DNA from: Saprospiraceae bacterium
Lineage (GTDB): Bacteria > Bacteroidota > Bacteroidia > Chitinophagales > Saprospiraceae
Direction of reading: 5' to 3'
Assembly: GCA_035299145.1 (NCBI GenBank)
Contig: DATGWZ010000023.1
Span: 681,801 to 745,800, forward strand
Length of the DNA stretch: 64,000 nt
Shown here: in pieces, positions 31,184 through 54,013 of the stretch
Numbering within the stretch: the stretch's first letter is position 1
Layout: each line of letters starts with the position of its first letter
Program-made: the position numbers and the translations under genes
The notes under the pieces: model-generated
Seen by the model: only the letters and a program-made list of their open reading frames with translations
Told to the model about the DNA's origin: nothing
The model's database searches: none

Positions 31184-32404
31184 ATGAAAACGATTCTTGC
31201 CACCACTTATGCAGTAAATCCATATAAAGGATCAGAAGATGGAATGGGATGGAATTTTGTGTTGCAAATAGCAAAAAACAATAAAGTCATAGCCATCACT
31301 AGGAAAAACAATAGAATGGACATTGAAAAATATATGTCTTCAAACCCAAATGATCTTTATGAAAATATGACTTTTCTTTATTTTGATTTGCCATACTGGA
31401 TGCGATGGTGGAAAAAAGGTGGCCGTGGTGCCATGCTTTATTACTGGATGTGGCAGAAAGGCATCGTTTCTTTTGTTAAAAACCAAAGTCTAGAATTTGA
31501 TATAGTGCATAACCTTAATTTTCACAATGACTGGACTCCCAGTTATTTATGGCAATTGGGCAAACCATTTGTATGGGGACCTGTAGGTCACCATCCATTG
31601 ATTCCAAGTCAATACCTTAAGGAATATTCATTCAAATATTTTTTAAAGGATCGGGCGACTTGGCTTATTAAAAATTATTTCTGGAAAGTCAATACATCCC
31701 TAAAGAATACAGCTGCAAAAGCAGATTTCGTTTGGTGCATGAATGACGCTGTACCTAGTAAACTCCATCTTAAACCAAAGCAGTACCAAATAATTCCTTC
31801 AGTAGCAACCCAAGATTTCGGTTTTATAGAAGGTTCGGAGAATGAAAATTTCACATTTATCTCTGCGGGTAGATTAGTTCCATTAAAGGGTTTTGATCTT
31901 GCTATTCGAGCTTTTACAACGTTTTATAATACCTTAAGTGATATAGAAAAAGCAAAAACAAAACTCATCATTGTTGGTAGTGGACCAGAAGATAAACTAC
32001 TTATAAAACTAGCTAGAGATTTAGGAGTAGAAAATAATATCCAATTTGTACTGTGGATGGAAAGGAATGAACTTATGAAATTATTTAAACAGTCGCAAGT
32101 ATTCCTATTCCCATCTCATGAGGGAGCTGGCATGGTCGTCCCTGAAGCTTTGTCATTCGGTCTGCCAGTGATTTGTCTCGACAATTGTGGCCCTGGTAGT
32201 TTTATAAACGAACAATGCGGTATTAAAATAAAGGAAGATACATATGATAATACCACAGTCAATCTAGCAGAAGCGATGCGAACTTTATATTCGGATAAAG
32301 CAAAATACAAAGGATTGAGACAAGGCGCAAGAGCACAGTTTGAGCATGTTTTTCATTGGGATAGACGTGGTGAACAATTGGCCAAAATTTATGACTCTTT
32401 ATAA
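31184..32404 (+). CDS. glycosyltransferase family 4 (GT-B fold)
   Basis: C-terminal FLFPSHEGAGMVVPEALSFGLPVI (EX7E motif). Confidence 0.8.
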   Translation: MKTILATTYAVNPYKGSEDGMGWNFVLQIAKNNKVIAITRKNNRMDIEKYMSSNPNDLYENMTFLYFDLPYWMRWWKKGGRGAMLYYWMWQKGIVSFVKNQSLEFDIVHNLNFHNDWTPSYLWQLGKPFVWGPVGHHPLIPSQYLKEYSFKYFLKDRATWLIKNYFWKVNTSLKNTAAKADFVWCMNDAVPSKLHLKPKQYQIIPSVATQDFGFIEGSENENFTFISAGRLVPLKGFDLAIRAFTTFYNTLSDIEKAKTKLIIVGSGPEDKLLIKLARDLGVENNIQFVLWMERNELMKLFKQSQVFLFPSHEGAGMVVPEALSFGLPVICLDNCGPGSFINEQCGIKIKEDTYDNTTVNLAEAMRTLYSDKAKYKGLRQGARAQFEHVFHWDRRGEQLAKIYDSL

Positions 32405-32411
32405 ATAAACC

Positions 32412-33497
32412 ATGAGAATATTTGCCTTTCATCTCCTAAACGATTATAGTGGTAGTCCTAAAGTATTAAAACAACTTGTCAATGGTTGGACCAATAACGG
32501 TATGGATTGTCATATAGTCACATGCAGCGGGAGAGAAGGGTTTTTGTCAGATATCAAAGGGGTAAAATATCACCATTATTGGTATAGATTTGCTCAGAAT
32601 CCATTCTTGAGATTGATTTTTCTAATGATCAGTCAGTTGCTTTTGATTATTAAAATGTATCCTGTCATCACAAAAAGCGACGTAATATACGTCAATACAG
32701 TGCTGCCCTTTGGTGCAGGAATATTAGGAAAGTTAAAAGGGTGTAAAGTCATATATCATATCCACGAAACAAGTATGAAACCTTGGATATTGAAAAAAAT
32801 TCTATTTGGAATTGCAGACGCTACATCCACAGAAGTAGTTTATGTATCCAAATATCTATCTGAACAGGAAACGATGAAAAAACCTGGACATGTGCTGTAC
32901 AATGCTTTGGAAACTTCTTTTTTGTCCAAAGCATTATTAAACAGAAAAGTGACACCTGATTATAAAAATGTGCTGATGATATGCTCCCTCAAAGCATACA
33001 AAGGTGTGAATGAGTATTTACAACTAGCAAAAAAAAATCCAGAATATGCTTTCCGACTTGTAGTGAATGCTTCTGCCATGGACATAGAAGTATATTTTGC
33101 AGGTCAAAATCTTCCGCAAAACTTAACGATATTTCCTACACAAAAAGATGTACATCCACAATATCAATGGGCTGATGTGGTCCTTAATTTGTCTCGTCCT
33201 GATGGATGGGTAGAAACATTTGGCCTTACAGTCATCGAAGCAATGGCTTATGGTCTCCCTGTCATAGTGCCTCCCGTAGGAGGAATAGCCGAGCTCGTAG
33301 AGAAAGGTGTTAATGGCTATAAAGCCGATAGCAGAAACGTCAATCACATATCACACCTGCTTGTGGATATATTGGAAGATAAAATACACTACGAAAAACT
33401 CAGTACCTACGCCAAGCAACTGATTGTCAAATATGACGAAGATAGTTTTGTGATGAAGAGTTGCGAGATGTTGAAAGATGAGCGTATTGCTCAATAA
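32412..33497 (+). CDS. glycosyltransferase family 4 (GT-B fold)
   Basis: ETFGLTVIEAMAYGLPVIVPPVGGIAELV motif. Confidence 0.8.
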   Translation: MRIFAFHLLNDYSGSPKVLKQLVNGWTNNGMDCHIVTCSGREGFLSDIKGVKYHHYWYRFAQNPFLRLIFLMISQLLLIIKMYPVITKSDVIYVNTVLPFGAGILGKLKGCKVIYHIHETSMKPWILKKILFGIADATSTEVVYVSKYLSEQETMKKPGHVLYNALETSFLSKALLNRKVTPDYKNVLMICSLKAYKGVNEYLQLAKKNPEYAFRLVVNASAMDIEVYFAGQNLPQNLTIFPTQKDVHPQYQWADVVLNLSRPDGWVETFGLTVIEAMAYGLPVIVPPVGGIAELVEKGVNGYKADSRNVNHISHLLVDILEDKIHYEKLSTYAKQLIVKYDEDSFVMKSCEMLKDERIAQ

Positions 33498-33516
33498 GTT
33501 AACTACAATTTAAGAA

Positions 33517-33551
33517 GCCCAATCGTTGGAAATGTTTTCCATTATCTGGAA
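33517..33551. promoter_or_regulatory. tandem operator/UAS pair (degenerate plus perfect TTCCA-N5-TGGAA)
   Basis: 33517-33531 GCCCAATCGTTGGAA and 33537-33551 TTCCATTATCTGGAA, in a 20-bp register. They lie in the only intergenic gap of the plus-strand glycosyltransferase arm. Confidence 0.55.
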
Positions 33552-33603
33552 AATCTAAAAAATAAAAATTACATAATAGATTGATATTCAATTATATAAA
33601 TAC

Positions 33604-33619
33604 TGGCACAGTATTGTAA
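33604..33619 (+). promoter_or_regulatory. TGGCAC box (sigma-54 -24-like; the -12 is poor)
   Basis: TGGCACAGTATTGTAA, 32 nt upstream of the ATG at 33636 and 60 nt from the centre of the proximal palindrome. Confidence 0.35.
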
Positions 33620-33635
33620 CTAGTTAAACTAAATA

Positions 33636-34856
33636 ATGAATATGACATCTTTAAAACAAAAAATAGCCATCATAGGCACAGTAGGTCTCCCAGCCAAATA
33701 TGGTGGATTCGAAACATTGGCTGAGCATCTTGTAGACAATATGAGTGATGATTATGACATCACCGTCTATTGCTCTGGAAAGAAATATGCACAGGCTGAC
33801 CGTCAACCCAAATACAAAAATGCTCATCTTGTATATTTACCTTTGGATGCCAATGGGATTCAGAGCATACCTTATGATTCTTGGTCTATAATCCATGCAT
33901 TGTTTTATGCAGATGTACTTTTGATATTAGGAGTTGCTGGAGCATGGATGCTACCGTTTGTAAAATTTTTTACAAATAAAAAGATCATTATTTCTATAGA
34001 TGGTATTGAATGGAAACGGAACAAATGGAGCAGACCTGCCAAGTGGTATCTATGGTGGGCAGAAAAAATGGCCGTAAAATATTCTCATATTGATATTTCA
34101 GATAATGAATCTATACAAGATTATACAGCGGTCAGATATGGGACTCTAAGCAGAATTATAGAATATGGAGCAGATCATACAATGACGGTTCCTGTACAAA
34201 CTTCATTAAAAACTTCTTATCCATTTCTTGGATTGCCTTACGCTTTTAAAGTATGCCGAATCGAACCAGAAAATAATGTGGATATTGTACTAAGTGCATT
34301 CTCAAAACTACCCAAACACCGTCTAGTCATCATAGGCAACTGGAATAATAGTGATTATGGCAAAAACCTTAAAAAAAAGTACAGCTCTTTTAATCATATC
34401 TTTTTGTTAGATCCAATCTATGACCAATCGACCTTAGATATGATACGTGGTAATGCATTCCTTTACATACATGGACACTCTGCCGGAGGTACCAATCCTT
34501 CCTTAGTAGAAGCTATGTATCTGGGCTTACCTATTTTTTCTTATGGTGTTACCTACAATCGCACGACAACAGAAAACAAAGCCAGATATTTTTATAATGA
34601 AGAAGAACTTATAAATCTAATTAACAATACCCAAATTGCAGAAGTAAAATCTATCGGCAATACAATGAAGGAGATTGCCTATCGTAGATATACATGGAAA
34701 ACAATAGCTGATAAATACCGGGCATTAATACGAGAAGTTTTAGTTAGCGAGCCGAAATCATCTATCACGCCTTCGGTAACTTTATTACCGGCAGGAGAGT
34801 TGCTAAAACGAGAATTATATCACCTACATTTCCAAAAACTGTTTTTCCAAAAATAA
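33636..34856 (+). CDS. DUF1972-type glycosyltransferase (rhamnosyl/glucosyltransferase WchF-like)
   Basis: N-terminal IAIIGTVGLPAKYGGFETLAEHL (DUF1972 pattern) and C-terminal GGTNPSLVEAM. Confidence 0.75.
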   Translation: MNMTSLKQKIAIIGTVGLPAKYGGFETLAEHLVDNMSDDYDITVYCSGKKYAQADRQPKYKNAHLVYLPLDANGIQSIPYDSWSIIHALFYADVLLILGVAGAWMLPFVKFFTNKKIIISIDGIEWKRNKWSRPAKWYLWWAEKMAVKYSHIDISDNESIQDYTAVRYGTLSRIIEYGADHTMTVPVQTSLKTSYPFLGLPYAFKVCRIEPENNVDIVLSAFSKLPKHRLVIIGNWNNSDYGKNLKKKYSSFNHIFLLDPIYDQSTLDMIRGNAFLYIHGHSAGGTNPSLVEAMYLGLPIFSYGVTYNRTTTENKARYFYNEEELINLINNTQIAEVKSIGNTMKEIAYRRYTWKTIADKYRALIREVLVSEPKSSITPSVTLLPAGELLKRELYHLHFQKLFFQK

Positions 34857-34862
34857 ATAATC

Positions 34863-35969
34863 ATGGCACCATCTGACATATTTTTAGTTTTAGGCATCGT
34901 ACTATCATTTTTTTTATCCATAATAGTGATGCCTATCTTTAGATCCATTGCTATTAGAATTGGTCTAGTAGATAAACCAGATCATCGCAAAATCCATCAA
35001 AACCATATTCCTTTAGTAGGTGGCTTAGCGATTGGTTTTACATTACTACTCACTTTATTGTTACTAGCAAGATTTGAGCTTATTTCAAGTGCGTTGGTAA
35101 AACTATTGGGGGGCAGTTATGTGTTGTTGATTATCGGAGCAATAGATGACAAAAAGGACATTAGAGCATCATATAAACTTGTAGTTCAGATTCTTTGCGC
35201 CATAATTATTGCTATGGCTGGTTACAGATTGACTTCATTTCATGGCATCTTAGGTATTTATGACATTTCTCTGGTCGCCCAATACATACTCTCAGTCATA
35301 CTAATTACTGGAGTCATTAATGCATTTAATCTAATGGATGGTATTGACGGTCTGGCTGGAGGATTAATGCTTATAGGTTTTATGATACTTGCTACAATCA
35401 GCTATTATATTGGGCATGAATTTTATACTTTGCTATGTTTGATCGTAGCGGGTAGCTTGATCAGTTTTTTAAGGTTCAATGTATTTAGTCCTAAAAATAA
35501 GATATTTATGGGTGATGCAGGTTCGCTTTTTTTAGGTTTTCTGATGATAGGCATAGCTATTGATTTAATAAATATTGCATCTAAGGATGCAATTGGGGCC
35601 GAAGTAATTTGGTTACTTCCTTTAATTATTGCTGTATTTATAATACCAGTTGCTGATTCTCTACGTGTGTATTTCACTAGAATCAAAAATGGTAATTCGC
35701 CATTTAAAGCAGATAGATCACATATCCATCATCTATTTCTAGAATTGGGATTGAAGCACACAAAGGTCACTTTTATCATATCAATGTTGAGCTTAAGCCT
35801 AGTAATTCTCGCATTTTTATTTCACTTTATATGGACATTAGATATCATCTTATTGGGTATAGTCGCGATGCTGAGCATCATGTATTATATTCTGAATATC
35901 AATAAACAAGTAAATGAATGGCAACAAAAAATTAAACAGATGGAGTCACAGATGGAGTCACAGATGTAG
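34863..35969 (+). CDS. MraY/WecA-family polyprenol-phosphate hexose/HexNAc-1-phosphate transferase (initiating transferase)
   Basis: About 10 TM helices, AIDDKKD, NAFNLMDGIDGLAGG, MGDAGSLFLGF motifs. Confidence 0.85.
   Translation: MAPSDIFLVLGIVLSFFLSIIVMPIFRSIAIRIGLVDKPDHRKIHQNHIPLVGGLAIGFTLLLTLLLLARFELISSALVKLLGGSYVLLIIGAIDDKKDIRASYKLVVQILCAIIIAMAGYRLTSFHGILGIYDISLVAQYILSVILITGVINAFNLMDGIDGLAGGLMLIGFMILATISYYIGHEFYTLLCLIVAGSLISFLRFNVFSPKNKIFMGDAGSLFLGFLMIGIAIDLINIASKDAIGAEVIWLLPLIIAVFIIPVADSLRVYFTRIKNGNSPFKADRSHIHHLFLELGLKHTKVTFIISMLSLSLVILAFLFHFIWTLDIILLGIVAMLSIMYYILNINKQVNEWQQKIKQMESQMESQM
35940..35966 (+). repeat. 12-bp tandem duplication (2.25 copies) at the 3' end of the WecA-like gene
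   Basis: ATGGAGTCACAG ATGGAGTCACAG ATG encodes MESQMESQM immediately before the stop. Confidence 0.9.
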
Positions 35970-36102
35970 TAGTTTTTTGTAGGCTTTATGATCATTAAGA
36001 TTTCAACCAGTTAGACATTTGTTTTTATTTCTCAGAAGATAGTCTGTGAGACACCAAATTTTAGATTAGCATATTTTTTTCTACATAAACACATTATATC
36101 CT

Positions 36103-36110
36103 TACCTTTG
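36103..36110 (+). promoter_or_regulatory. Bacteroidota sigma-A type -7 box (TAnnTTTG) for the regulatory operon
   Basis: TACCTTTG lies 15 nt upstream of the GTG at 36125. There is no TTCCA-N5-TGGAA site in this gap. Confidence 0.4.
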
Positions 36111-36124
36111 TTGGACAATTAATT

Positions 36125-37498
36125 GTGTTTATCGTGGCAAAACAACAACTATTCACCATATTCATTGTAGAAGATGATCCTTGGTATGGTCAATTATTAA
36201 GACATCATCTATCGCTCAATCCAGATTATGACATCAGACTCTTTACCACAGCAAAAGAGTGTCTGTCTGAATTGTACCACCAACCCGACGTGGTTTGTAT
36301 TGATTTTGGATTGCCTGATATGAGTGGTGATAAACTATTGACAAAAATAAAGGCTGTCAATAATCAACTACCAGTAGTTGTCATCAGTGGTCAGGAAGAG
36401 ATTGCTGTTGCTGTGGATTTATTAAAATCTGGGGCCAGAGACTACATCATCAAAGATGATCACACCAAAGATATGTTATGGCGTTCTATCATAAATATTC
36501 GTGAAAATGTCCATTTAAAACAAGAGGTAGAATCATTAAAAGAACAACTTGAAACCAAGTTTAACTTTGAAAAAACTATTATCGGTCAGAGTGACGCCTT
36601 AAAAAAGTCATTTAGACTCATCGAAAAAGCTATACATTCTAATATTAATGTATCCATTACAGGAGAGACAGGCACTGGAAAAGAAGTAGTAGCAAAAGCG
36701 ATTCATTACAATAGCGAAAGGAGAAAAAAACCATTTGTCGCTGTAAATATGGCAGCAATACCTAAAGAACTAATAGAAAGTGAGCTTTTCGGACACGAAA
36801 AAGGTGCATTCACTGGTGCGCTAAATCAGAAAAAAGGAAAATTTGAAGAAGCAGATGGCGGTACATTGTTTCTTGATGAAATAGGAGAATTAGAACTCAA
36901 TCTCCAAAGTAAAATCCTTAGAGCTTTACAAGAACGTGAAGTGACTAGAGTAGGTGGCAATAGTAGTGTAAAATTTGATGTAAGACTCATCACTGCTACC
37001 CACAAAAACTTGGCAGATGAAGTCAAAAATGGTAATTTCAGAGAAGATCTTTATTTTAGGATCATCGGTCTTCCTATAGAATTGCCACCTCTCCGTGATC
37101 GTGGACAAGACACATATATTCTAGCAAAACATTTTATCGATGAATATGCTAAAGAAAATAAAGTCAAACCACCTATCTTGACCACGTCAGCAAAAGAAAG
37201 GCTTATTAAATACCATTTTCCTGGTAATGTTCGCGAACTCAAAGCCATGATGGATCTTGCTTGCGTCATGTGTGACGGTCAAGAAATCAACGAACATGAT
37301 ATCAATTTTCATAAGGTCAGAGACAATGACCACTTTCTAGTCGGCGAGAAGACCATGAAAGAATATACAGCTGATATCATTGCCTTTTTCCTAAAAAAAT
37401 ATGACAACAATGTGGTATTGACAGCAGATAAGTTAGACATCGGAAAATCCACCATTTACAATATGATAAAAAGTGGTGAAATCTCCTTAAAAAAGTAA
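36125..37498 (+). CDS. sigma-54-dependent response regulator (REC, AAA+, Fis-type HTH), NtrC family
   Basis: REC with VVCIDFGLPDMSG. Walker A GETGTGKE. ESELFGHEKGAFTGA (GAFTGA loop). C-terminal HTH LDIGKSTIYNMIK. The GTG start is uncertain by a few codons. Confidence 0.9.
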   Translation: MFIVAKQQLFTIFIVEDDPWYGQLLRHHLSLNPDYDIRLFTTAKECLSELYHQPDVVCIDFGLPDMSGDKLLTKIKAVNNQLPVVVISGQEEIAVAVDLLKSGARDYIIKDDHTKDMLWRSIINIRENVHLKQEVESLKEQLETKFNFEKTIIGQSDALKKSFRLIEKAIHSNINVSITGETGTGKEVVAKAIHYNSERRKKPFVAVNMAAIPKELIESELFGHEKGAFTGALNQKKGKFEEADGGTLFLDEIGELELNLQSKILRALQEREVTRVGGNSSVKFDVRLITATHKNLADEVKNGNFREDLYFRIIGLPIELPPLRDRGQDTYILAKHFIDEYAKENKVKPPILTTSAKERLIKYHFPGNVRELKAMMDLACVMCDGQEINEHDINFHKVRDNDHFLVGEKTMKEYTADIIAFFLKKYDNNVVLTADKLDIGKSTIYNMIKSGEISLKK

Positions 37499-37501
37499 AA
37501 T

Positions 37502-38629
37502 ATGAAAATAAAACAGTTCCAAATTATTGATAATCAAGAGTATATAATCGAGCAAGATGATAATATAAATGTCGTTTTATGTTTTGGTAGCAAACAACTA
37601 TTGAATAACCAGAATGTGATAACTGATATATCCAAAGCATTTCCAAACGCAAATATAGCATACTGCTCTACCGCAGGAGAAATATATGATAATCAAGTCA
37701 TGGACAACAGTATTTCTGCTGTAGCTATACAATTTGGTCATACAAAGGTTCTTTCAAATAGCATTTCTATTGATCAATTTTCAAATAGTTTTGATGCAGG
37801 CAAAAGCTTAGTTTCTTGTTTTGATACGCAAGACTTACGGTATATTTTTGTATTGTCTGACGGGAGTAAAGTCAATGGAAGCGAACTCGTCAAAGGGATG
37901 AATGAAGTGATAGACGATCATATACCTATCACAGGCGGTTTGGCAGGAGACGGACCTCATTTTCAAAACACCTTGGTTGGACTGAATGAGCCACCGACTT
38001 CTGGCAAAATATTGGCTTTGGCGTTTTATGGTGTTAAATTAAAAGTATCACACAGCTCTATGGGAGGATGGGAACCTTTTGGTTTGCAAAGATTAGTAAC
38101 AAAATCTAAAGCAAACGAACTATTCGAAATAGATGGGAAAAATGCTTTAGATCTTTACAAAGAGTACCTAGGAAAATACAGTGAAGAATTGCCCGGTTCA
38201 GCACTTCTTTTTCCATTATCTGTACAACTCCATGATAGTGAAAATTCTCTTGTTCGTACCATTTTGTCTATTGATAATGAGCGCAAAAGCATGCTTTTTG
38301 CAGGCGATATCCCAGAAGGTAGCAAAGTTAGATTTATGAAAGCAAATTTTGATAGACTGATAGATGCTGCGAGTCAAGCCGCAAATGTATCAGTGACAGA
38401 TTTTAATAGTATAGAGCCTTCTTTAGCTATTCTTGTCAGTTGTGTAGGCCGCAAACTGATATTGTCAGATAGGATTGATGAAGAAGTAGAAGCCGTCAAA
38501 GATGTTTTGGGCAGTCATACTACTATTAGCGGATTCTATTCCTATGGCGAAATATCTCCTCTGTTAAAAGGCACTTCTTGTGAATTGCACAATCAAACAA
38601 TGACCATCACTTGTCTATCAGAAGAGTAA
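37502..38629 (+). CDS. FIST (N plus C) domain signal-sensing protein
   Basis: No TM or signal peptide. ILVSCVGRKL...GFYSYGEISP pattern recalled from FIST_C. 3 nt downstream of the response-regulator stop. Confidence 0.65.
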   Translation: MKIKQFQIIDNQEYIIEQDDNINVVLCFGSKQLLNNQNVITDISKAFPNANIAYCSTAGEIYDNQVMDNSISAVAIQFGHTKVLSNSISIDQFSNSFDAGKSLVSCFDTQDLRYIFVLSDGSKVNGSELVKGMNEVIDDHIPITGGLAGDGPHFQNTLVGLNEPPTSGKILALAFYGVKLKVSHSSMGGWEPFGLQRLVTKSKANELFEIDGKNALDLYKEYLGKYSEELPGSALLFPLSVQLHDSENSLVRTILSIDNERKSMLFAGDIPEGSKVRFMKANFDRLIDAASQAANVSVTDFNSIEPSLAILVSCVGRKLILSDRIDEEVEAVKDVLGSHTTISGFYSYGEISPLLKGTSCELHNQTMTITCLSEE

Positions 38630-38651
38630 TATCCACACAAAACAAAGTAAA

Positions 38652-41600
38652 ATGTATCATAAATTACTGAAAAAACAGATCAATAAGTTCCTAAATGATG
38701 ATCTACAAAAGGATGCAGAAATTCAGGAATTTCTTAAACATATCAATCAGTCATACCTATCCTTTGAGCGTGATAAAGATATAATGAATCATGCATTCAG
38801 TGTCAGTGAGAAAGAATTTCAAGAAGTAAACGAAAGTCTTAAAAAAGAATCTGAAGTAAGACAGATTACAATAGAAAAACTAAAAGAAGTTGTATTTCAA
38901 CTTGTAGATGAAGATCATTTTTTTGACAAATCTGAAAAGGATGATTTGTACAAAATTTCAGAATTTATCAACCTTCAAATACAAAAAAATAAAGGAACAG
39001 AAGAAAACCTAAAACGGACCATAAACTTATTCAAAACGCTATTAGCCAATCTCCAATCAGGTGTATTGGTTGAGAATGAAAATAGAGAAATCTTATTTAC
39101 CAATCATCTTTTTTGCAAAATGTTCGAAATACCGGCACCTCCAGATGCTTTGATAGGTGCTGACTGTTCTCAATCTGCAGAATTGAGCAAACATCTATTT
39201 TCTGATCCAGAAAGTTTTGTGTTATCAATAAATAAAATTCTTAATGAACAAATACCTGTTTACAATGAACTGATAGAAACAGTTTCTGGTCATTTCTATG
39301 AGCGCGATTACGTTCCGATCTTTATTGACAAGATATATAAAGGTCATTTATGGCAATACAAAGATATCACTGAAAGGGTCAATTACGAAAAACTCCTTCG
39401 CGAAAATGAAGAGCTAAATCGACTCATCATGGATACTGCCATGGATGCCATTACCCTGGCTGACACCAAAGGAGTTATCAGGTATTGGAATCCTGCAGCC
39501 GCTCAGTTATTTGGGTTTGCCAATGAAGATGCTATCGGAAGCAAATTGGCAGATACCATCATACCTATGAGACTTCGGGATGCGCATGAATCAGGCATGC
39601 AAAGATTTAATACAACTGGCGTAGGCAGAATATTTAACATGAGGCTAGAGTTACCAGCCTTACATGCTGACGGTCATGAGTTTCCAATAGAAATGTATAT
39701 CATAGGTTTTGAACAAAAAGGAGAGAAACTTTTTTGTGCTTTTATTAAGGATATAACTGAAAGAGTCGAAGCACAAAAAATTATTGACCAACAATTACAA
39801 CTGCAGGATTTACTCATCAATATATCATCTACATATATTAACATAGACCTTGATCAGGTCGAACACACTATAAATAAATCATTGCAAGAACTTGGCAAAT
39901 TTGTGGGAGCTGACCGGGCATATATTTTTGATTATGACTTTGAATTAAATACCACTTCCAATACTTATGAATGGTGCGAAGAAGGTACCACACCTGAATT
40001 TAATAATCTACAAAACGTTTCACTTGATTTTATGCCACAATGGGTAGAAAAACATAAGCAAGGTCTACCATTTTACATTCCCGACATGGAGTTACTTCCC
40101 TATGAAGGACCTGAAAGCCTTCGAGGCGTATTAGAGCCACAAGGAATAAAAAGTCTTATCACCATCCCAATGATAAGTAATAGTAAACTGATAGGTTTTG
40201 TAGGCTTCGATTCCGTAAAAGATAAACATGAATATTCTGAAAAAGAAATGAAGTTGTTGTCTCTTTTTGCCCAAATGTTGATTAATATATTCGAAAGAAA
40301 AAGAAAAGAAAACCTCCTTACAAAACAAGAAGAAAAATATCGTAATATTATAGCAAATATGAATCTTGGCTTATTGGAAGTGACACCAGACGAGACCATT
40401 ATTTTTGCTAATCAAAGCTTTTGTGATATGTCAGGTTATACAATTGAAGACTTGAAAGGAGAAAAAGCAATCAAATTTTTATTGTACGATGACGACCAAG
40501 AAGTATTAAACGAAAAGCTAAAACTGCGAGAAAAGGGTCAGTCAGACAGTTACGAAATAGCCGTCAAAAACAAGCAAGGTGAAATTCGCTGGTGGTTTAT
40601 CAGCGGAGCCCCAAATTATAATGATCGCAATGAATTAATTGGCTCCATAGGTATCCATCTAGACATTACCAATCAAAAAAAATTGGAAAAAGAACTGGAA
40701 AAAGCCAAACTGCAAGCTGAAGATGCATCTCGCGCCAAGGAATCTTTTCTGGCCAATATGAGTCATGAAATCCGTACACCACTTAATGCGATCATAGGTA
40801 TGATCAGAGAGTTGGGTCGTGAAGAACTGACCCCAAAACAAAACTCATACGTTAGCCATAGTGAGACAGCCGCAAGACACCTACTCACTATCGTCAATAA
40901 TATCCTTGATATGTCAAAGATCGAAGCTGGCGAATTGATTATTGATGCTAAGGAATTTAGCTTAATGTCAGTGATCGGAAATGTCATCAGTATCCTACAT
41001 TCAAAAGCACAAGAAAAGAAACTTGAACTTAATTACCATATAAGTCCTGATATCAAACCTGCCCTAATAGGCGATAGCGGTAGAGTCAGACAAATCCTTA
41101 TAAATCTAGTAGGGAATGCCATAAAATTTACCGATGCAGGCAAAATAGACCTTTCAGTAAATGTAAAACAAACCAATCAATATTTCCAACAACTAAGTTT
41201 TGAAATCAAAGACACAGGAATAGGTATGAATAAAGAATACCTAAATCAAATATTTAATAAGTTTTCGCAAGAAGAAGGGTCAGCCGCAAGAAGATACGAA
41301 GGTACTGGTCTTGGGATGACCATTACAAAAGAAATGATAAACCTTATGGGCGGAAATTGCGAAATACAAAGTGAAAAAGGAATAGGCACAACAGTAACAT
41401 TTAACCTTACACTACCTGTAGGTGACGAAAATAAACTGGTTGATAAAGATAGTTACCTTGTGGATGATAGCTTGCAAAATCTTAAGATTCTTTTGGTAGA
41501 AGATAATGAGATGAATAGCTTTATTGCATGTCAAAGTTTACATTATTTTGGGTGTATCGTAGATACTGCAAGTAACGGTATAGAAGCGATAGAAAAATTA

Positions 41601-42230
41601 GCAGTCCAAAAACCAGACCTTATTTTAATGGATATCCAAATGCCTGAAATGGACGGTATAGAAGCCACCAAATTTATTAGGGACGAAATGGCTATCTCTA
41701 CCCCAATAATCGCCTTGACGGCAAATGCATTTAAGCGCGACATAGATTTATATTTATCTATTGGTATGAATGATTATGTCACTAAACCATTCGAAGAAAA
41801 TGTACTATTTAACACCATTGCAAATACGCTAAATATTAAAACAAAAACACCAACTCTGACTAATATTTTGCAAAGCAAACCATCAAATGAGACACCATTG
41901 TATGATCTTACAAATATTAAAACATTGAGTCGTGGCGATCAGTCTTTTGTCAATAAAATGATTGAAATTTTTGTAGAACATACCCCAACTTCTGTGACTG
42001 AAATAAAAGTCGCTTTCGAAAATCAAGATTACTTGACGATCAGTAAGATAGCACACAGAATGAAACCAAGTATTGACAATATGGGCATTCATTTACTAAA
42101 AAATCCCATCAGAGAGTTGGAGTCAAGTGCCAAAATGGAAGTCGTGGATGATAAAAAGGTCGAATTATTAATAGAAAATATTGAAAATACCTTGGCAAAA
42201 GTGATAGAGGATTTGAAGGCAACAACTTAA
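38652..42230 (+). CDS. soluble hybrid sensor histidine kinase (coiled coil, PAS x2-3, GAF, HisKA, HATPase_c, REC, HPt)
   Basis: H-box MSHEIRTPLNAIIGM. N/G boxes LINLVGNAIKFT and DTGIGM...GTGLGM. REC LVEDNEMN...LILMDIQMPEMDG. HPt AHRMKPS. No TM helices. Confidence 0.9.
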   Translation: MYHKLLKKQINKFLNDDLQKDAEIQEFLKHINQSYLSFERDKDIMNHAFSVSEKEFQEVNESLKKESEVRQITIEKLKEVVFQLVDEDHFFDKSEKDDLYKISEFINLQIQKNKGTEENLKRTINLFKTLLANLQSGVLVENENREILFTNHLFCKMFEIPAPPDALIGADCSQSAELSKHLFSDPESFVLSINKILNEQIPVYNELIETVSGHFYERDYVPIFIDKIYKGHLWQYKDITERVNYEKLLRENEELNRLIMDTAMDAITLADTKGVIRYWNPAAAQLFGFANEDAIGSKLADTIIPMRLRDAHESGMQRFNTTGVGRIFNMRLELPALHADGHEFPIEMYIIGFEQKGEKLFCAFIKDITERVEAQKIIDQQLQLQDLLINISSTYINIDLDQVEHTINKSLQELGKFVGADRAYIFDYDFELNTTSNTYEWCEEGTTPEFNNLQNVSLDFMPQWVEKHKQGLPFYIPDMELLPYEGPESLRGVLEPQGIKSLITIPMISNSKLIGFVGFDSVKDKHEYSEKEMKLLSLFAQMLINIFERKRKENLLTKQEEKYRNIIANMNLGLLEVTPDETIIFANQSFCDMSGYTIEDLKGEKAIKFLLYDDDQEVLNEKLKLREKGQSDSYEIAVKNKQGEIRWWFISGAPNYNDRNELIGSIGIHLDITNQKKLEKELEKAKLQAEDASRAKESFLANMSHEIRTPLNAIIGMIRELGREELTPKQNSYVSHSETAARHLLTIVNNILDMSKIEAGELIIDAKEFSLMSVIGNVISILHSKAQEKKLELNYHISPDIKPALIGDSGRVRQILINLVGNAIKFTDAGKIDLSVNVKQTNQYFQQLSFEIKDTGIGMNKEYLNQIFNKFSQEEGSAARRYEGTGLGMTITKEMINLMGGNCEIQSEKGIGTTVTFNLTLPVGDENKLVDKDSYLVDDSLQNLKILLVEDNEMNSFIACQSLHYFGCIVDTASNGIEAIEKLAVQKPDLILMDIQMPEMDGIEATKFIRDEMAISTPIIALTANAFKRDIDLYLSIGMNDYVTKPFEENVLFNTIANTLNIKTKTPTLTNILQSKPSNETPLYDLTNIKTLSRGDQSFVNKMIEIFVEHTPTSVTEIKVAFENQDYLTISKIAHRMKPSIDNMGIHLLKNPIRELESSAKMEVVDDKKVELLIENIENTLAKVIEDLKATT

Positions 42231-42283: not shown

Positions 42284-42318
42284 TTCCAATAAGAAACATA
42301 AAATTCCATAATTTGGAA
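42284..42318. promoter_or_regulatory. tandem operator/UAS pair (half-site plus perfect TTCCA-N5-TGGAA)
   Basis: TTCCA at 42284-42288 (right half degenerate) and 42304-42318 TTCCATAATTTGGAA, in a 20-bp register. 107-141 nt upstream of the ATG at 42425. Confidence 0.55.
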
Positions 42319-42385
42319 TTTAAAACCTATCAATTTATTCCTATGTTATTGATAATGTGATTATTATGAAAGAGGATTGATTTTT

Positions 42386-42401
42386 GGCATACTGCTCATG
42401 T
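42386..42401 (+). promoter_or_regulatory. TGGCAT box (sigma-54 -24-like; no -12 GC)
   Basis: TGGCATACTGCTCATG, 39 nt upstream of the ATG at 42425. Confidence 0.3.
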
Positions 42402-42424: not shown

Positions 42425-45400
42425 ATGAGACTCATTTTTATTATTCTATTAGCTTGGGTAGCCTTCTCCACCACATTGATTGCTGGTGGCGCACCTTCTA
42501 CCTACTTCAATATATATTTACCACCCAATAACGACCCTGTACAGCGCAATGTAGCGCTTATTGTCACGGCCATCTATGATGAAACAACATTTACCATTAC
42601 AGATGATGATGCGGATGGTGACAATGATGATACGGTGACGGGAACACTGAGCGCTGGTCAATCTTATGTACTCTACATCAAAGATAATGGTATCAATGAT
42701 GATGCTCAGTATGCTTCTGGAGGAGTACTAAAAAGAGATGGCGATTATTTTATTATCAATAGCTCAAAATTGGTTTTTGCTTCCATGTCCACGGATAGTG
42801 ATTGGCAACATGACTTTGTACCTAGTGTAAATAAGACATCCTTAGGTGGTAAATTTATCATTTATGCCCCAAAAATTACATCTTCTAAGCGTGATTTGAA
42901 TGTTTTTGCATTTGAAGACAATACAACTATTACAATATCCAAAATATCATCTGTACCAACAACTGCTACAGGGTATACAAACATAGATATTGATGCTAAA
43001 ACCATTGTAAAACAACGTACAATAAATCGAGGACAAGACATCATTCATCACTTTCAGGATGGCAGAGATGTGATGGAGACAGGAGCAACCTATATGATAG
43101 AATCCAATAAACCTGTATCTGTGCAATATGGTGCTTTATGGGCAAATGCTAGAGATGGCGGCGGGTACGTACCATCTTCTAATGGATCTTCTAGCGGAGA
43201 TCTATTCTATTTTGCAGTACCCTATCAGTCTATTGGCGAACAAGAAATAAGAATCGTGTCTTGGGATGATAATAACGCCGTTACACTTGAAAGATATGAA
43301 AATGGCAGCTGGATCAATATGAAGTCCTGGACAGTCAATCGTCTAAAGCCTGCTGACTGGATAGGAAAGAAAAATGGTAATGCGACTTATCCCACAGTGT
43401 TCAGAATTAGCTGTACACCTAATAAAAAGGTATCCGTATTTGAATGTAATTGGATGGAAACAGGTAGTCCAGGTACATCTGATATGGCATCAATGGTTTC
43501 TTCAGAAGCTGGAACAGATGCTGGCAAAGAGTTTTTAGTATACCTACTCCCTCCAGGAAATCAAAACAATGTTATAAATCCATTCACAGGTCAATTATTT
43601 GGTGGTAACTTTGCACATTGCTACATCTATGCAGGAGATCAAGCGGCAAATGTCACAATAAAGGATACTAAAACTAACGGATCGATTATCAATAGAACTT
43701 ATACTATCCAGCCAAATAGATACGTCGATGCCTTTTTTACATTGAATGAATGGAAGAGCATTTATAATGGAAATGGAAACCCAGATTCTGGACCCGATAG
43801 ACCCTATGTTTTGATAGAATCTAATCAAAATATTTCTGTTATGAACTCCAATACCAATGACAACTGGATGATGTATTTTGGGTCGTCACTTGAATCAGGA
43901 TTCTCACAAGTTGGTGATGCATCTCAGAATTCGGCTATACCTGGTGATAACATCACTTTTACATCTGTCATTACGAATGGTAGTAGCACTTTGACAAATA
44001 CAGAATTGCAAGTTGTCATTGGTTCTGGTGCCGTACCATCTTCATCTGAAGTTAATCTAGGCAATCAGAATATCCCAGGTGTCATTACATCTAATGAAAA
44101 CCAATCTACAATCACATTCAATAATGTACCAAACTTAGCTGCAAATCAACAAGTTTCTATCGTTACTGAATTAGTCATAAACCCAACTTTTAATAATGGG
44201 AATCCAATACCAAATAACACAGTCATTTCTATAGAATCTTCAGTAACTGGTCTTGTCAATGGTCAAGTGCAACAGTCAGTAATCACTGAAGGTATCCAAA
44301 ATAATTCAAGTAATCTATCTCAATTATTATTTAATCCATGCGCTACAGGTGTTTTGGGAGATGTGGCTACAGATAGCTGGAATATAGCTTGGGTAGATTA
44401 CAATAACGATGGGTGGGAAGATCTTTTTGTCACAGATCGTAATCCATCAAAACCCAATCTTTTGTTCACCAACAGTGCTGGTAATAATTTTTATAAAGCG
44501 ACCAATGGTCCACTAGTCAATTTAACAGAAAAAACAGTTGCTTCGGCATGGGGAGACTATAATAATGATGGTTTGGTAGATGTTTTTGTGGTGAATGCGA
44601 CAGGTACTCAAAGTAGATTATTCAAAAACGTTAACGGGAGCTATGTAGAAGTATCCAATACTGGACTAGATGTAGATCCACAATATTTTCATGGAGCTGC
44701 TTGGTTTGATATGGACAATGATGGTTTTCTGGATTTAATTGTTACCAATTATTTTGAGACAAAATTTCATAAAATATATCGTAATAATAAGAATGGCACC
44801 TTTACATCCCTTAAAGATAACCCTATTGCACTGGAAAGTAACAGATCCACAATGCCTGCTTTGGCAGATTATAATAATGATGGATTGGTAGATGTCTTTA
44901 TTCCGAATGGCAACGATAAGCCTAATTCTTTATTCAAAAATATAGGAAATGGTAATTTTGAAAAGATCACTCAAAGCGTACTTTCTGCCGCATCCCAAAA
45001 TAGTGTAGGTGCTTTGTGGGCCGATTATAATAATGATGGATGGGTAGATTTATATGTTTTAAATGCATCAAAACAACAAAATGAATTATTCAAAAACTTA
45101 GGTGATGGTAATTTTGAAAAAATAAACAACACTGCGCTTACTGAATCATTTGCCGACACCCATACAGCACTATGGCTAGATCATGACAATGATGGCGACT
45201 TAGATTTTTATATGTCAAATGATCAAGGTTCGAGTTTTTATTACATCAATAATGGGAATGACGATTTTACAAAAAAATTGGGTGAAATGGTAAGTTCAAA
45301 CTTTGGACATGCTATGGGAGCAGCTTCAGCCGATTATAATAGAGATGGACATATTGATATTTTTGTGGCTACACACACTAATGATAAAAATAAATTATTC

Positions 45401-47038
45401 TGTAATCAGTCTCATGAAAATAATCATTTTATCAATATTAAACTGGTAGGTACTTATAGTAATAAATCTGCTATAGGAAGCTCCATTAAAATAACTGCTA
45501 ATGGTCAGAGTCAATATCGTCAAGTGCTGCCTGTACAAGGATTGGGGAGTCAGAATAGCTTACGACAACACTTCGGTTTAGGTAATGCTACTACCGTTGC
45601 TACTATAGAAATAAAGTGGCCATCAGGATATGTTCAGATACTTAACAATATAGCAGTAGATCAGTTTGTCACCATTATAGAGGAAGCCGCAAACCTTGTC
45701 ACGGGATTTGCTTTTAGTGATGATAATGGTAATTGTACGTGGGAAGAAGGTGAACAAAAAATTGAGAATATTGCATTTACGATAGGATCTAATCAATCAA
45801 CATTCACATCCCGTAAAGATGGTATATTTGACCAGAGAATTGGAGCAGGAAATCATACAATAACGCTACAACCCAATGATTACTGGAGTCTAAACTGTTC
45901 ATCATCGGTGAATGTATCAGGAAACAATAACACTTTTAATATAAATCTGCCCCTGACAAAGATTGCAAATGGTGGTGATGCAGGTATCAGCTTTGGCGTC
46001 ACTGCTTGGAGAAGGGGATTTGCAAGCGAATCTATTCTTAGATATTACAATCAAGGTACTGCCAATGCGACAAATGCCAAAATAGAAGTAACTTACCCAT
46101 CGGGAATTGAACTGAAATCAGCAAGTATTCCTTGGACGGAGAAAATTGGTGATACTTATATATGGCAAATTGGCAATATCAATCCGGGAACAGATTTCAC
46201 CATCAATTTGCGCGATTCAGTAACTTTGGCGGTAACGGTCGGACAATTTTTGACACTAAATGCAAATATTATAACCACAAATTCAGATCTAAATCCTGCC
46301 AATAATACATTTACTGAAAATTTAGAAATAGTAGGCGCCATAGACCCGAATGACATCTTGGTTACACCGCGTGGTGAAGGCAAAGAAGGTTTTATAAAAA
46401 AAGACCAAACTTTAAAATATCATATCCGTTTCCAAAATGTGGGTACTTATGCAGCTTCTAGAATTGTATTGGAGAATCAATTATCAAAACACCTAGATTG
46501 GAATACTTTCAAAATAGAATCAGTAAGCCATGAAGGATATCACTATAGTATTGATGACAAAGGTTTATTAACTGTGAGGTTTAACAATATTGAATTACCT
46601 GACAGTACTAGCAATGAAGCGGAAAGTCACGGGTTTTTTATCTATACCATAAAGGCATTTGGAGATGTCAAGGGTGGAGAAAGAATTGAAAACAGTGTTT
46701 TAATTACATTTGATTATGAAGAATCTTTACAATCCAATGTAGTCGTAAATACTATTAAATATAATGGTAAACCTAATACAAAAAGCTTACATATATTCCC
46801 TAATCCTGCCACTGACTTGGTAAACGTTATAGGAGACGCTGGCGATATTCTGAAAGATCTTCCTTTATTACATACCATCAAAATATTAAACTTTGCAGGG
46901 AGCGTTATCAATGTAATTAACAATACTGAGAAGTATAATATTGATATTAATGTAAGCCATTTAGCGCCAGGTATTTATTATATAACTGGTTATGATTATG
47001 ACGGTCTTATTTATCAAGGGAAAATGGTGAAGATGTAA
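42425..47038 (+). CDS. ~1537-aa T9SS-secreted protein: four N-terminal ~110-aa repeats, 7 FG-GAP/VCBS repeats, an UnbV/ASPIC domain (CRTAC1-like), Ig-like/CARDB-like domains and a T9SS C-terminal domain
   Basis: Signal peptide MRLIFIILLAWVAFSTTLIAG. Seven xxDYNNDGxxDLFVxN repeats. KWPSGYVQIL UnbV-like segment. C-terminal LHIFPNPATDLVNVIG...GIYYITGYDYDGLIYQGKMVKM. I prefer the ATG at 42425 over the TTG at 42377. Confidence 0.85.
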   Translation: MRLIFIILLAWVAFSTTLIAGGAPSTYFNIYLPPNNDPVQRNVALIVTAIYDETTFTITDDDADGDNDDTVTGTLSAGQSYVLYIKDNGINDDAQYASGGVLKRDGDYFIINSSKLVFASMSTDSDWQHDFVPSVNKTSLGGKFIIYAPKITSSKRDLNVFAFEDNTTITISKISSVPTTATGYTNIDIDAKTIVKQRTINRGQDIIHHFQDGRDVMETGATYMIESNKPVSVQYGALWANARDGGGYVPSSNGSSSGDLFYFAVPYQSIGEQEIRIVSWDDNNAVTLERYENGSWINMKSWTVNRLKPADWIGKKNGNATYPTVFRISCTPNKKVSVFECNWMETGSPGTSDMASMVSSEAGTDAGKEFLVYLLPPGNQNNVINPFTGQLFGGNFAHCYIYAGDQAANVTIKDTKTNGSIINRTYTIQPNRYVDAFFTLNEWKSIYNGNGNPDSGPDRPYVLIESNQNISVMNSNTNDNWMMYFGSSLESGFSQVGDASQNSAIPGDNITFTSVITNGSSTLTNTELQVVIGSGAVPSSSEVNLGNQNIPGVITSNENQSTITFNNVPNLAANQQVSIVTELVINPTFNNGNPIPNNTVISIESSVTGLVNGQVQQSVITEGIQNNSSNLSQLLFNPCATGVLGDVATDSWNIAWVDYNNDGWEDLFVTDRNPSKPNLLFTNSAGNNFYKATNGPLVNLTEKTVASAWGDYNNDGLVDVFVVNATGTQSRLFKNVNGSYVEVSNTGLDVDPQYFHGAAWFDMDNDGFLDLIVTNYFETKFHKIYRNNKNGTFTSLKDNPIALESNRSTMPALADYNNDGLVDVFIPNGNDKPNSLFKNIGNGNFEKITQSVLSAASQNSVGALWADYNNDGWVDLYVLNASKQQNELFKNLGDGNFEKINNTALTESFADTHTALWLDHDNDGDLDFYMSNDQGSSFYYINNGNDDFTKKLGEMVSSNFGHAMGAASADYNRDGHIDIFVATHTNDKNKLFCNQSHENNHFINIKLVGTYSNKSAIGSSIKITANGQSQYRQVLPVQGLGSQNSLRQHFGLGNATTVATIEIKWPSGYVQILNNIAVDQFVTIIEEAANLVTGFAFSDDNGNCTWEEGEQKIENIAFTIGSNQSTFTSRKDGIFDQRIGAGNHTITLQPNDYWSLNCSSSVNVSGNNNTFNINLPLTKIANGGDAGISFGVTAWRRGFASESILRYYNQGTANATNAKIEVTYPSGIELKSASIPWTEKIGDTYIWQIGNINPGTDFTINLRDSVTLAVTVGQFLTLNANIITTNSDLNPANNTFTENLEIVGAIDPNDILVTPRGEGKEGFIKKDQTLKYHIRFQNVGTYAASRIVLENQLSKHLDWNTFKIESVSHEGYHYSIDDKGLLTVRFNNIELPDSTSNEAESHGFFIYTIKAFGDVKGGERIENSVLITFDYEESLQSNVVVNTIKYNGKPNTKSLHIFPNPATDLVNVIGDAGDILKDLPLLHTIKILNFAGSVINVINNTEKYNIDINVSHLAPGIYYITGYDYDGLIYQGKMVKM

Positions 47039-47063
47039 CAAAAGAAACTAATTTTTGAAAATA

Positions 47064-47102
47064 AAAGAGCCATCAGTAATAAAATACTTGAAGGCTTTTT
47101 TG
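47064..47102 (+). terminator. weak intrinsic terminator after the T9SS cargo gene
   Basis: Imperfect stem AGCC-TCAG / TTGA-GGCT followed by TTTTTTG. Confidence 0.35.
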
Positions 47103-53910: not shown

Positions 53911-53934
53911 TATAAAATGTTGTTAACTTGGTAT

Positions 53935-53950: not shown

Positions 53951-54013
53951 TTTACATACCAAGATGTATTATATTGATAATTAATTACTTATGAAATGTT
54001 TGAATAGAATGTA

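Follow-up and report, generated by a model that had tools for sequence, protein, structure and literature searches.

A conserved response regulator, FIST protein and hybrid kinase cassette predicted to control an exopolysaccharide locus through sigma-54 in Bacteroidota

Three adjacent genes in a 64,000-nucleotide stretch of contig DATGWZ010000023.1 from a Saprospiraceae bacterium (the whole stretch is called the window, and all positions refer to it) encode a sigma-54-dependent response regulator (RR), a stand-alone FIST protein and a soluble hybrid histidine kinase, and are located in the middle of a Wzy-type exopolysaccharide (EPS) locus. On the basis of the gene content, the motifs, the synteny, and the statistics of dyads and promoters that were observed, we propose, with a probability of roughly two in three, that this cassette is a dedicated cytoplasmic phosphorelay that switches on the Wzy/Wza/Wzc-type EPS locus through sigma-54. 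The soluble FIST protein would bind a small ligand and dock on the kinase, most likely on an N-terminal module of approximately 120 residues; once docked it would modulate kinase autophosphorylation, as NosP does with NosK, NahK and VpsS, and the PAS-GAF-PAS modules of the kinase would add further cytoplasmic inputs. The phosphate is predicted to travel from the His of the HisKA domain to the Asp of the internal receiver (REC), then to the His of the C-terminal HPt domain and finally to the Asp of the RR. The phosphorylated RR would bind TTCCA-N5-TGGAA dyads, often present in tandem about 20 bp apart and followed by an A/T-rich bendable spacer, and would remodel the sigma-54 holoenzyme on TGGCAY-N5-TnG promoters placed 52-88 nt downstream. 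At least five units of the window would be activated in this way: unk786 and the glycosyltransferase (GT) genes that follow it, the DUF1972-GT and WecA-like genes, the gene for an FG-GAP protein secreted by the type IX secretion system (T9SS), the genes from wzc to wzy, and cheY-wza. The CheY-like receiver, itself a predicted target and a paralogue of the RR receiver, probably competes for the HPt phosphate, acting as a feedback element or sink, or else signals to the export machinery.

To our knowledge, almost nothing is known about how EPS production and biofilm formation are regulated in environmental Bacteroidota such as flavobacteria, the Saprospiraceae of activated sludge, Chryseobacterium and Pedobacter. 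Full-text literature searches returned no description of the Bacteroidota module, of the dyad or of the kinase N-terminal module. The module described here is real, conserved and mechanistically interpretable, and represents an undescribed variant of a known signalling design whose biochemical steps we infer.

Organization and domain composition of the cassette

The RR open reading frame (ORF) spans positions 36125-37498 (457 aa, or 454 aa in the public gene call, which begins at 36134), the FIST gene 37502-38629 (375 aa) and the kinase ORF 38652-42230 (1192 aa), all on the forward strand, with intergenic gaps of 3 nt between the RR and FIST genes and 22 nt between the FIST and kinase genes. 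An initial annotation of this DNA had delimited the same three ORFs and gaps, which were reproduced here, and the domains that it had named for the three products were all recovered by a Pfam scan. One of these matches, to the Hpt domain of the kinase, lies marginally below the Pfam cutoff (23.1 bits against 24.6, E 9e-5); the NCBIfam TorS and ArcB alignments extend through this domain to the C-terminus of the protein.

The RR has the composition of an NtrC-class sigma-54 enhancer-binding protein (EBP). It includes a Response_reg domain with the acceptor Asp, an AAA+ domain of the Sigma54_activat family (1.8e-71) in which the GAFTGA motif (residue 227) and the Walker A motif GETGTGKE are intact, an AAA_lid_14 domain, and a weak C-terminal helix-turn-helix (HTH), LDIGKSTIYNMIK. 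The recognition helix, LDIGKSTIYN, is nearly unchanged over five classes. The RR was rejected as an NtrC equivalog (TIGR01818, 389.5 bits against a cutoff of 558.6) and as the PEP-CTERM regulator PrsR (TIGR02915, 366.9 bits against 502.6). The association of sigma-54 EBPs with EPS clusters is a known general theme (Francke et al. 2011, PMC3162934), and the RR shares with the EPS-controlling members of the NtrC family, as in the PEP-CTERM system PrsK/PrsR, the receiver, the AAA+ domain with GAFTGA, the HTH and, as candidates, the palindromic upstream enhancers. In contrast with PrsK/PrsR, the partner kinase in the window is soluble, hybrid and presumably FIST-assisted; among the annotated neighbours of the cassette no exosortase or PEP-CTERM genes were found.

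In the kinase the Pfam scan identified three PAS domains, a GAF domain, HisKA, HATPase_c, Response_reg and the C-terminal Hpt. The first 120 residues (38652-39011) form an N-terminal module, which is followed by a sensory region (39024-40670) with a PAS-like segment (residues 125-245), a PAS domain (256-368), a GAF domain (404-543) and a second PAS domain (561-673). The kinase core (40734-41414) includes HisKA (residues 695-760, H-box SHEIRTPLN) and HATPase_c (807-921), and is followed by the internal receiver (41487-41819, residues 946-1056) and the C-terminal HPt (41958-42191, residues 1103-1180), whose His lies in the sequence AHRMKPS; all these regions are read from the forward strand. The H-box His and the receiver Asp are intact, and the protein has the makeup of an unorthodox hybrid kinase, that is, HisKA, HATPase, REC and HPt with the catalytic His, Asp and His. 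It had been suggested that the cassette is a phosphorelay and not a simple two-component pair; the HisKA-REC-HPt kinase next to a sigma-54 RR, with modules and catalytic residues present in both, agrees with this. The suggestion that the kinase has no transmembrane helix also stands: no transmembrane or hydrophobic segment was detected in a Kyte-Doolittle profile with a 19-residue window, in which the maximal mean was 1.28, whereas two controls encoded in the locus, the WecA-like and Wzc-like proteins, reached 2.76 and 2.99.

The relay in a single chain of four steps, HisKA-HATPase-REC-HPt, is shared with ArcB, BarA, TorS and EvgS, and the best NCBIfam alignments of the window kinase are with this group. 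These proteins are anchored in the membrane, whereas the window kinase has no transmembrane segment, carries the FIST-associated N-terminal module and scores far below the equivalog cutoffs. Its assignment as BarA (384.5 bits against 890), TorS (371.5 against 676.5) or ArcB (325.2 against 838) was rejected for the scores and also for the missing membrane anchor.

Conservation of the triad in Bacteroidota

Relatives of the FIST protein were collected by a scan of one genome per species, from which 80 loci were retrieved, 79 of them informative for the downstream gene. Such relatives occur in at least 595 species, the close homologues are labelled Saprospiraceae, and even the relatives from Nitrospirota, Acidobacteriota, Planctomycetota and Proteobacteria remain about 50% identical. 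A kinase gene lies directly downstream of the FIST gene in 68 of the 79 loci, and in 57 its product has an N-terminal module of the window type (about 120 residues). The full triad of RR, FIST protein and HPt-containing kinase was found in 14 loci, from Saprospiraceae, Lewinella, Flavobacteriaceae, Flavobacterium, Chryseobacterium, Pedobacter, Edaphocola and Ferruginibacter. Every one of these triad loci (14/14) carries at least one perfect dyad, with 22 dyads observed against 0.31 expected; the FIST loci of low G+C content that have no triad gave 3 perfect dyads against 0.48 expected.

In at least four classes of Bacteroidota the triad keeps its synteny with these EPS genes, so that the conservation of this neighbourhood in related genomes, on which the initial annotation had made its reading depend, was found. 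The fully contiguous order RR-FIST-kinase-[dyad]-CheY-Wza-Wzc-unk416-GT4-Wzy is present in Flavobacteriaceae, Flavobacterium, two Chryseobacterium species and one further metagenome-assembled genome. In Pedobacter the operon from unk786 to WecA precedes the RR gene, and dyads are located before unk786 and before the FIST gene; one Lewinellaceae locus contains the whole cluster. The recurrence of the arrangement in many genomes indicates that it is not due to chance. In four loci (L004, L027, L038 and L052) the flanks contain no EPS genes and dyads are still found beside the RR gene, which ties the dyad to the regulator and not to the sugar genes; these loci and L042 have dyads directly upstream of the RR or FIST genes.

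A variant gene order was observed in loci L009, L010, L012 and L013 (Mucilaginibacter, Ferruginibacter), where the RR gene is followed by a long PAS kinase with HPt and without the N-terminal module, then by the FIST gene, and then by a short kinase that lacks HPt and is composed of the N-terminal module, HisKA, HATPase and REC. This order suggests that the window kinase corresponds to a fusion of two kinases, or that a relay of two kinases operates in the variant genomes. In L020, L036 and L017, stand-alone HPt genes are located just upstream of the FIST gene.

The FIST protein and its relation to NosP

Both FIST families match the product of 37502-38629 strongly, FIST N (Pfam PF08495) with 156.0 bits (cutoff 23.2, E 1.4e-45) and FIST_C (Pfam PF10442) with 134.1 bits (cutoff 28.5, E 4.2e-39); the hidden Markov model match that the initial annotation had required of this protein is therefore present twice. 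The only NCBIfam family that it matches is NosP (NF041558), with 71.7 bits against a cutoff of 450, and the assignment as a NosP equivalog was rejected because the curated cutoff is missed by a wide margin. A search of the PDB with the protein sequence gave no matches. An AlphaFold model built from a 42-sequence alignment reached a mean predicted local distance difference test (pLDDT) of 90.2 and a predicted template modelling score (pTM) of 0.90, and its best structural matches were to the FIST domain of human FBXO22 (PDB 8ua3, 8s7d; E 2.4e-11, TM score 0.55-0.62); bacterial FIST proteins are not represented among the available structures. The human domain has the same fold as the model, which confirms the FIST fold; its identity to the window protein is only 11%, and FBXO22 is a eukaryotic ubiquitin-ligase substrate receptor that is functionally unrelated to kinases. 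Four residues of the FIST protein, His184, Cys314, Cys360 and His363, are invariant, and are candidate cofactor ligands.

The closest known systems are those of NosP, for which we compared PA1975/PA1976 of Pseudomonas aeruginosa, nosRPK of Burkholderia pseudomallei and NosP-NahK-NarR of Legionella pneumophila. In the nosR-nosP-nosK operon, two-hybrid and 32P assays demonstrated that NosP binds and inhibits NosK (PMC12570481), and in the NosP-NosK/NahK systems the FIST protein binds the kinase and controls its autophosphorylation (PMC12570481, PMC8846402). The window shares with these systems a stand-alone FIST_N+FIST_C protein encoded directly beside a soluble histidine kinase, the RR-FIST-kinase gene order of nosRPK, and a biofilm or matrix output. 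The differences are that the output of the window cassette is a sigma-54 activator and that of the NosP systems a c-di-GMP enzyme or the Gac/Rsm network, that the window kinase has its own PAS-GAF-PAS region and an HPt in the same chain, and that the host belongs to the phylum Bacteroidota. In Vibrio cholerae, the route NosP-VpsS-LuxU-LuxO leads to the vps biofilm genes (PMC6769237), and the logic is the same as that proposed here: from a FIST protein to a cytosolic hybrid kinase, an HPt, a sigma-54 EBP and EPS genes (vps) (PMC6769237). The Vibrio HPt, LuxU, is a protein of its own that is shared, and the LuxO gene lies at another place, whereas in the window the HPt is fused to the kinase and the RR gene is in the same operon; moreover, LuxO acts indirectly through the Qrr small RNAs, whereas the EPS operons of the window themselves carry the predicted enhancer and -24/-12 elements.

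Given these similarities, the FIST protein could be a true NosP-type sensor that binds heme and, when bound to nitric oxide (NO), inhibits the kinase, so that EPS and biofilm genes would be turned off by NO, as they are in Vibrio, Pseudomonas and Burkholderia. This alternative bears solely on which ligand is bound and on whether it activates or represses, and is compatible with the architecture that we favour. It is in line with the NosP match being the only one in NCBIfam, with the match of the kinase to the NahK/ErcS "near_NosP" model, with the nosRPK-like gene order (PMC12570481), with the biofilm-related output common to all NosP systems (PMC6769237), and with the invariant Cys314, Cys360, His184 and His363, which could ligate a cofactor; the source also appears to be a member of the Saprospiraceae of the activated-sludge type, for which NO derived from denitrification would be plausible. 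However, seven members of the clade, which represent six phyla or classes and have Beta- and Gammaproteobacteria, Nitrospirota, Acidobacteriota and Flavobacterium among their sources, scored between 43 and 88 bits against the NosP cutoff of 450; every tested member, the proteobacterial ones included, stays far below the equivalog cutoff. In addition, a review points out that ligand binding and signal propagation by FIST domains are little understood, and that in some systems heme itself, and not NO, may be the signal (PMC8846402). We therefore regard a NO or heme sensor of the NosP type as rather doubtful here. The FIST gene is adjacent to and co-oriented with that of a kinase without a membrane sensor, and, judged by this arrangement together with the family scores, the protein is NosP-like in design but belongs to a separate, unusually conserved FIST clade. 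The earlier statement that FIST domains are poorly characterised overlooked the NosP literature, although the clade of the window stands apart from NosP.

The N-terminal module of the hybrid kinase

Residues 2-120 of the kinase match no Pfam family. An exhaustive search of 1.84 billion representatives found this module in 349 clusters, essentially always at residues ~3-125, and the nine carriers that were scanned are all histidine kinases (9/9); the module is specific to kinases encoded directly after FIST genes. The sole exception in position is the 1641-aa protein P0130, where FIST_N-FIST_C is fused in front of the module and is followed by PAS, HisKA, HATPase and REC, an arrangement that gives Rosetta-stone support to a functional link between FIST and the module. 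The smallest partner kinases, of about 500 aa, add only HisKA, HATPase and REC to the N-terminal module and lack any further sensory domain, and in these the FIST protein must supply the input. The module is the candidate FIST-receiving (docking) domain. The idea that the FIST protein acts on the kinase as a separate polypeptide, already put forward in the initial annotation, gains from the established NosP-NosK/NahK design (PMC12570481, PMC6769237), from the adjacency in 68/79 loci and from the FIST-kinase fusion. With 152 bits against a cutoff of 400 in the NahK/ErcS "near NosP" model (NF041832), the kinase itself was rejected as a member of that family.

A second alternative is that the PAS-GAF-PAS region contains the real sensors and that the FIST protein is a scaffold or adaptor, which for example tunes phosphatase activity or couples another kinase. 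The window kinase does have ~550 residues of PAS and GAF domains, and the variant loci that place the FIST gene between a long PAS-HPt kinase and a short kinase with the N-terminal module, HisKA and REC suggest a multi-kinase wiring. Nevertheless, the partner kinases of ~500 aa would be left with no input other than the FIST protein, and its identity of ~50% across phyla is typical of a protein that binds a ligand or cofactor; for these reasons we consider a mere adaptor role unlikely, and favour an input that enters the relay through the FIST protein.

TTCCA-N5-TGGAA dyads and sigma-54-type promoters

The window contains five perfect TTCCA-N5-TGGAA dyads, as compared with 0.07 expected from its composition, and all of them lie within 27-55.6 kb. 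Four are intergenic (27975, 33537, 42304 and 55336) and are located 70-110 nt upstream of operon starts. The first is part of a tandem, TTCCAATAATTGGAA and TTCCATAATTCGGAA (27975-28009), in which the second dyad, at 27995, is a one-mismatch copy; this candidate enhancer precedes the operon unk786-acetyltransferase-GT4-GT4, and a -24/-12-like element, TGGCATTACTTTGGC (28064-28078, forward strand), lies 36 nt before the called start at 28101. The dyad TTCCATTATCTGGAA (33537-33551) is upstream of the DUF1972-GT/WecA-like operon and is followed by the -24/-12-like element TGGCACAGTATTGTA (33604-33618, forward). Just downstream of the kinase gene, the dyad TTCCATAATTTGGAA (42304-42318) precedes the gene of the FG-GAP/ASPIC protein, a T9SS cargo, with a -24-like element, TGGCATACTGCTCAT (42385-42399, forward), whose -12 part is poor, 39 nt before the called start at 42425. 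The dyad TTCCATATTTTGGAA (55336-55350), with an extra TGGAA half-site adjoining it, is upstream of the CheY-Wza operon, and the -24/-12-like element TGGCATAACCTTCGT (55269-55283, reverse strand) stands between it and the CheY-like gene. A one-mismatch dyad, ATCCAAATATTGGAA (54033-54047), is found in the wza-wzc intergenic region, and a further -24/-12-like element, TGGTATGTAAATGGC (53947-53961, reverse), upstream of the wzc-like gene. Second dyads, partial or full, about 20 bp away are common both in the window and in its relatives.

Downstream of each intergenic dyad comes an A/T-rich stretch that resembles TTGAT..ATCAA, and beyond it a TGGCA[C/T] sequence, 31-50 nt ahead of the start codon. 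The promoters are of the TGGCAY-N5-TnG type, and the distance from dyad to -24 element is 52-88 nt. When the window and the 80 loci were analyzed together, a TGGYAY hexamer was present 45-95 nt from 19 of 36 dyads, as compared with 9.8% at random positions (p ~1e-10). In 20 promoters aligned on the GG, positions of the -12 element that had not been selected for were conserved, T12 in 19/20 and G14 in 14/20, and these correspond to the T and the G of the canonical -12 TTGC. A scan of the whole window for the canonical sigma-54 sequence (TGGCAC-N5-TTGC, up to two mismatches) gave 40 sites against 39 expected, so that the signal appears only once the search is anchored on the dyads. Sigma-54 with typical -24/-12 promoters is used in flavobacteria (PMC9723704), and validated sigma-54 promoters with non-canonical -12 elements have been documented (PMC12316311).

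The combination of an enhancer, an A/T-rich bend and -24/-12 elements is the classic layout of promoters activated by an EBP together with sigma-54. The dyad promoters of the window show this layout, as read from their motifs, with a degenerate -12 element, and the location of the dyads 52-88 nt upstream of sigma-54-type promoters makes them likely enhancers of the RR. It had been claimed that the cassette controls the dyad-bearing units on its flanks, and the co-occurrence of dyad and triad, the sigma-54-type promoters and the near-invariant recognition helix of the RR all speak strongly for it; the sigma-54-type promoters of these units had escaped the initial annotation.

The cassette itself has a different upstream region. 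A Bacteroidota sigma-A type -7 box, TACCTTTG (36103-36110, forward), is present upstream of the RR gene, and no dyad with up to two mismatches was found in the promoter region 35900-36140, as the initial annotation had described. A scan of 35.8-48.2 kb for E. coli-type sigma-70 promoters and for terminators remained at background level, and the stretch from the WecA-like gene to the RR gene contained no terminator-like site. The initial annotation had taken the cassette to be made constitutively, but autoregulation by read-through from the dyad-driven upstream operon is thus possible. In several other genomes a dyad is located directly upstream of the RR or FIST gene.

Two observations concern individual sites. 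A perfect dyad is located inside the wza coding sequence (54505-54519) and a one-mismatch dyad inside the GT4c gene (50064-50078); these could be internal enhancers or occur by chance. The mechanically determined TTG starts of the ORFs at 28074 and 42377 precede or overlap the predicted -24 boxes (28064 and 42385), a clash from which the true starts are most likely the downstream ATG codons of the public calls (28101 and 42425).

Strength of the proposed circuit

Several points weigh against a circuit of this kind. The NosP and NahK thresholds are both missed (71.7 against 450 bits and 152 against 400), and the NosP analogy may for this reason not cover the ligand or the sign of regulation. 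The P0130 fusion could be a gene-calling artefact, that is, a merged call. The canonical C15 is present in only 5 of the 20 aligned promoters, so that the -12 element does not have the canonical GC, and the promoters at 42385 and 33604 fit the sigma-54 pattern poorly; sigma-54 dependence stays, in view of both, a prediction, and rpoN lies outside the window. The variant loci L009, L013 and L017 have no perfect dyad, and in L072 the cluster is present with no match to the RR. The dyads co-occur with EPS genes as well as with the triad, which leaves room for another regulator. Finally, the contact between FIST protein and kinase, the direction of regulation, the ligand, the phosphotransfer steps and the binding of the RR to the dyads are all steps that we infer.

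A third alternative is that some other regulator, with its gene outside the locus, uses the dyad as its operator, while the RR serves different promoters and the cassette merely travels with EPS genes. It would accommodate the co-occurrence of dyads and EPS genes, the weak -12 elements and the fact that RR-dyad binding is a prediction, but is very improbable, given that the conserved cluster encodes no DNA-binding protein other than the RR, that its near-invariant recognition helix matches an invariant dyad, that in L004, L027, L038, L052 and L042 the dyads directly upstream of the RR or FIST genes accompany the triad without flanking EPS genes, and that the 52-88 nt spacing with its A/T-rich spacer is the classic EBP layout.

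Control of the EPS locus by the RR-FIST-kinase relay would represent a compact circuit with a single sensor protein, a single kinase and a single sigma-54 activator, together with a 15-bp enhancer suited to genome-wide searches and defined target operons. It would extend the paradigm of FIST proteins as accessory sensors, known until now only from the NosP of proteobacteria, to another FIST clade of much wider distribution, and it singles out one unannotated domain of the kinase as the place where FIST is likely to dock, which would help to explain FIST signalling in general. A broader reading, which we offer tentatively, is that of a phylum-wide Bacteroidota regulon with three new parts: a FIST clade that senses neither NO nor heme, ~50% identical from Bacteroidota to Nitrospirota, Acidobacteriota and Proteobacteria; a FIST-receiver kinase domain; and a definable enhancer code, in which tandem TTCCA-N5-TGGAA dyads combine with TGGCAY-N5-TnG promoters and a single EBP would directly drive a complete EPS locus plus a T9SS cargo.

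The EPS locus and other genes of the window

Pfam calls on the source contig and our own scan place the cassette in the middle of a Wzy-type EPS locus, and the calls on the neighbouring genes agree with the setting given in the initial annotation. The content is that of a Wzx/Wzy-dependent EPS or capsule cluster: Glycos_transf_4, four GT4/GT1 genes, Wzy_C, Wzz+GNVR and Poly_export. Upstream, on the forward strand, the order is a tetratricopeptide repeat (TPR) protein, a 786-aa protein (unk786), a hexapeptide acetyltransferase, two GT4, a DUF1972-GT1 and a WecA-like initiating transferase (Glycos_transf_4), and the predicted target biosynthesis genes, from unk786 to the WecA-like gene, occupy 28101-35969. 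Downstream of the cassette is the FG-GAP/UnbV_ASPIC gene (42425-47038, forward; 1537 aa), a predicted target whose product ends in a Por_Secre_tail, the signature of T9SS cargo. Convergent with it on the reverse strand is the block of predicted target genes for export and polymerisation (48100-54808), which contains Wza (Poly_export, 54059-54808), the Wzc-like Wzz/GNVR protein (Wzz + GNVR, 51706-53910), unk416 (416 aa, no Pfam match, 50459-51709), a GT4 (GT4c, 49368-50477) and Wzy_C (48100-49371).

The block is headed by a REC-only, CheY-like protein (54808-55239, reverse strand; 80 bits), which is the first gene of the REC-Wza-Wzc-...-Wzy operon, and its description as an output-less receiver at the head of the export operon was confirmed. 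The CheY-like protein shows 38% identity over 117 aa (83 bits) with the receiver of the RR and 34% over 67 aa (35 bits) with that of the kinase. The operon dyad-CheY-Wza-Wzc comes immediately after the kinase gene in Flavobacteriia; this adjacency, together with the 38% likeness to the RR receiver, strengthens the link between the CheY-like protein and the cassette. The protein is the conserved, dyad-preceded head of its operon, and its closer similarity to the RR receiver fits a putative role as competing acceptor or feedback element, in line with the guess of the initial annotation.

No Wzx flippase was identified by Pfam annotation among the genes of the EPS locus. The unk416 gene, between the Wzc-like and GT4 genes, keeps the same position in all syntenic loci with 34-36% identity, and its product may act as the flippase or supply some other absent function. 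The first gene of the dyad-controlled GT operon, unk786 (28101-30461, forward), encodes a protein with a weak thymidylate-kinase-like P-loop match (residues 588-776) and a weak match to a segment of APH phosphotransferases (residues 220-274); it heads the same operon in Pedobacter (36%) and Lewinellaceae (40%), and may be an undescribed kinase-like EPS component. The FG-GAP/UnbV_ASPIC gene, with its own dyad and -24 box, also follows the kinase gene in the closest relative (L002), and it therefore seems that the regulon extends from the EPS enzymes to a protein that is secreted or exposed at the surface.

Rfam and tRNA scans of the whole window gave no match, including the approximately 1-kb non-coding gap (47039-48099) between the convergent FG-GAP and Wzy genes, where a single 54-aa ORF is called. 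This gap contains several terminator-like hairpins (47498-47512, 47529-47546 and 47705-47728).

A second sigma-54 activator (57867-59135, reverse strand), composed of Sigma54_activat, an AAA lid and HTH_8 without a receiver, adjoins a radical-SAM MiaB-like gene. In Flavobacterium psychrophilum, a probable sigma-54-dependent regulator is annotated next to lptE (PMC9723704). The second EBP may be of a housekeeping type; considering this similar regulator and a recognition helix unlike the LDIGKSTIYN of the RR, it was judged unlikely to bind the dyads. Its presence shows that sigma-54 use in this genome extends beyond the EPS locus.

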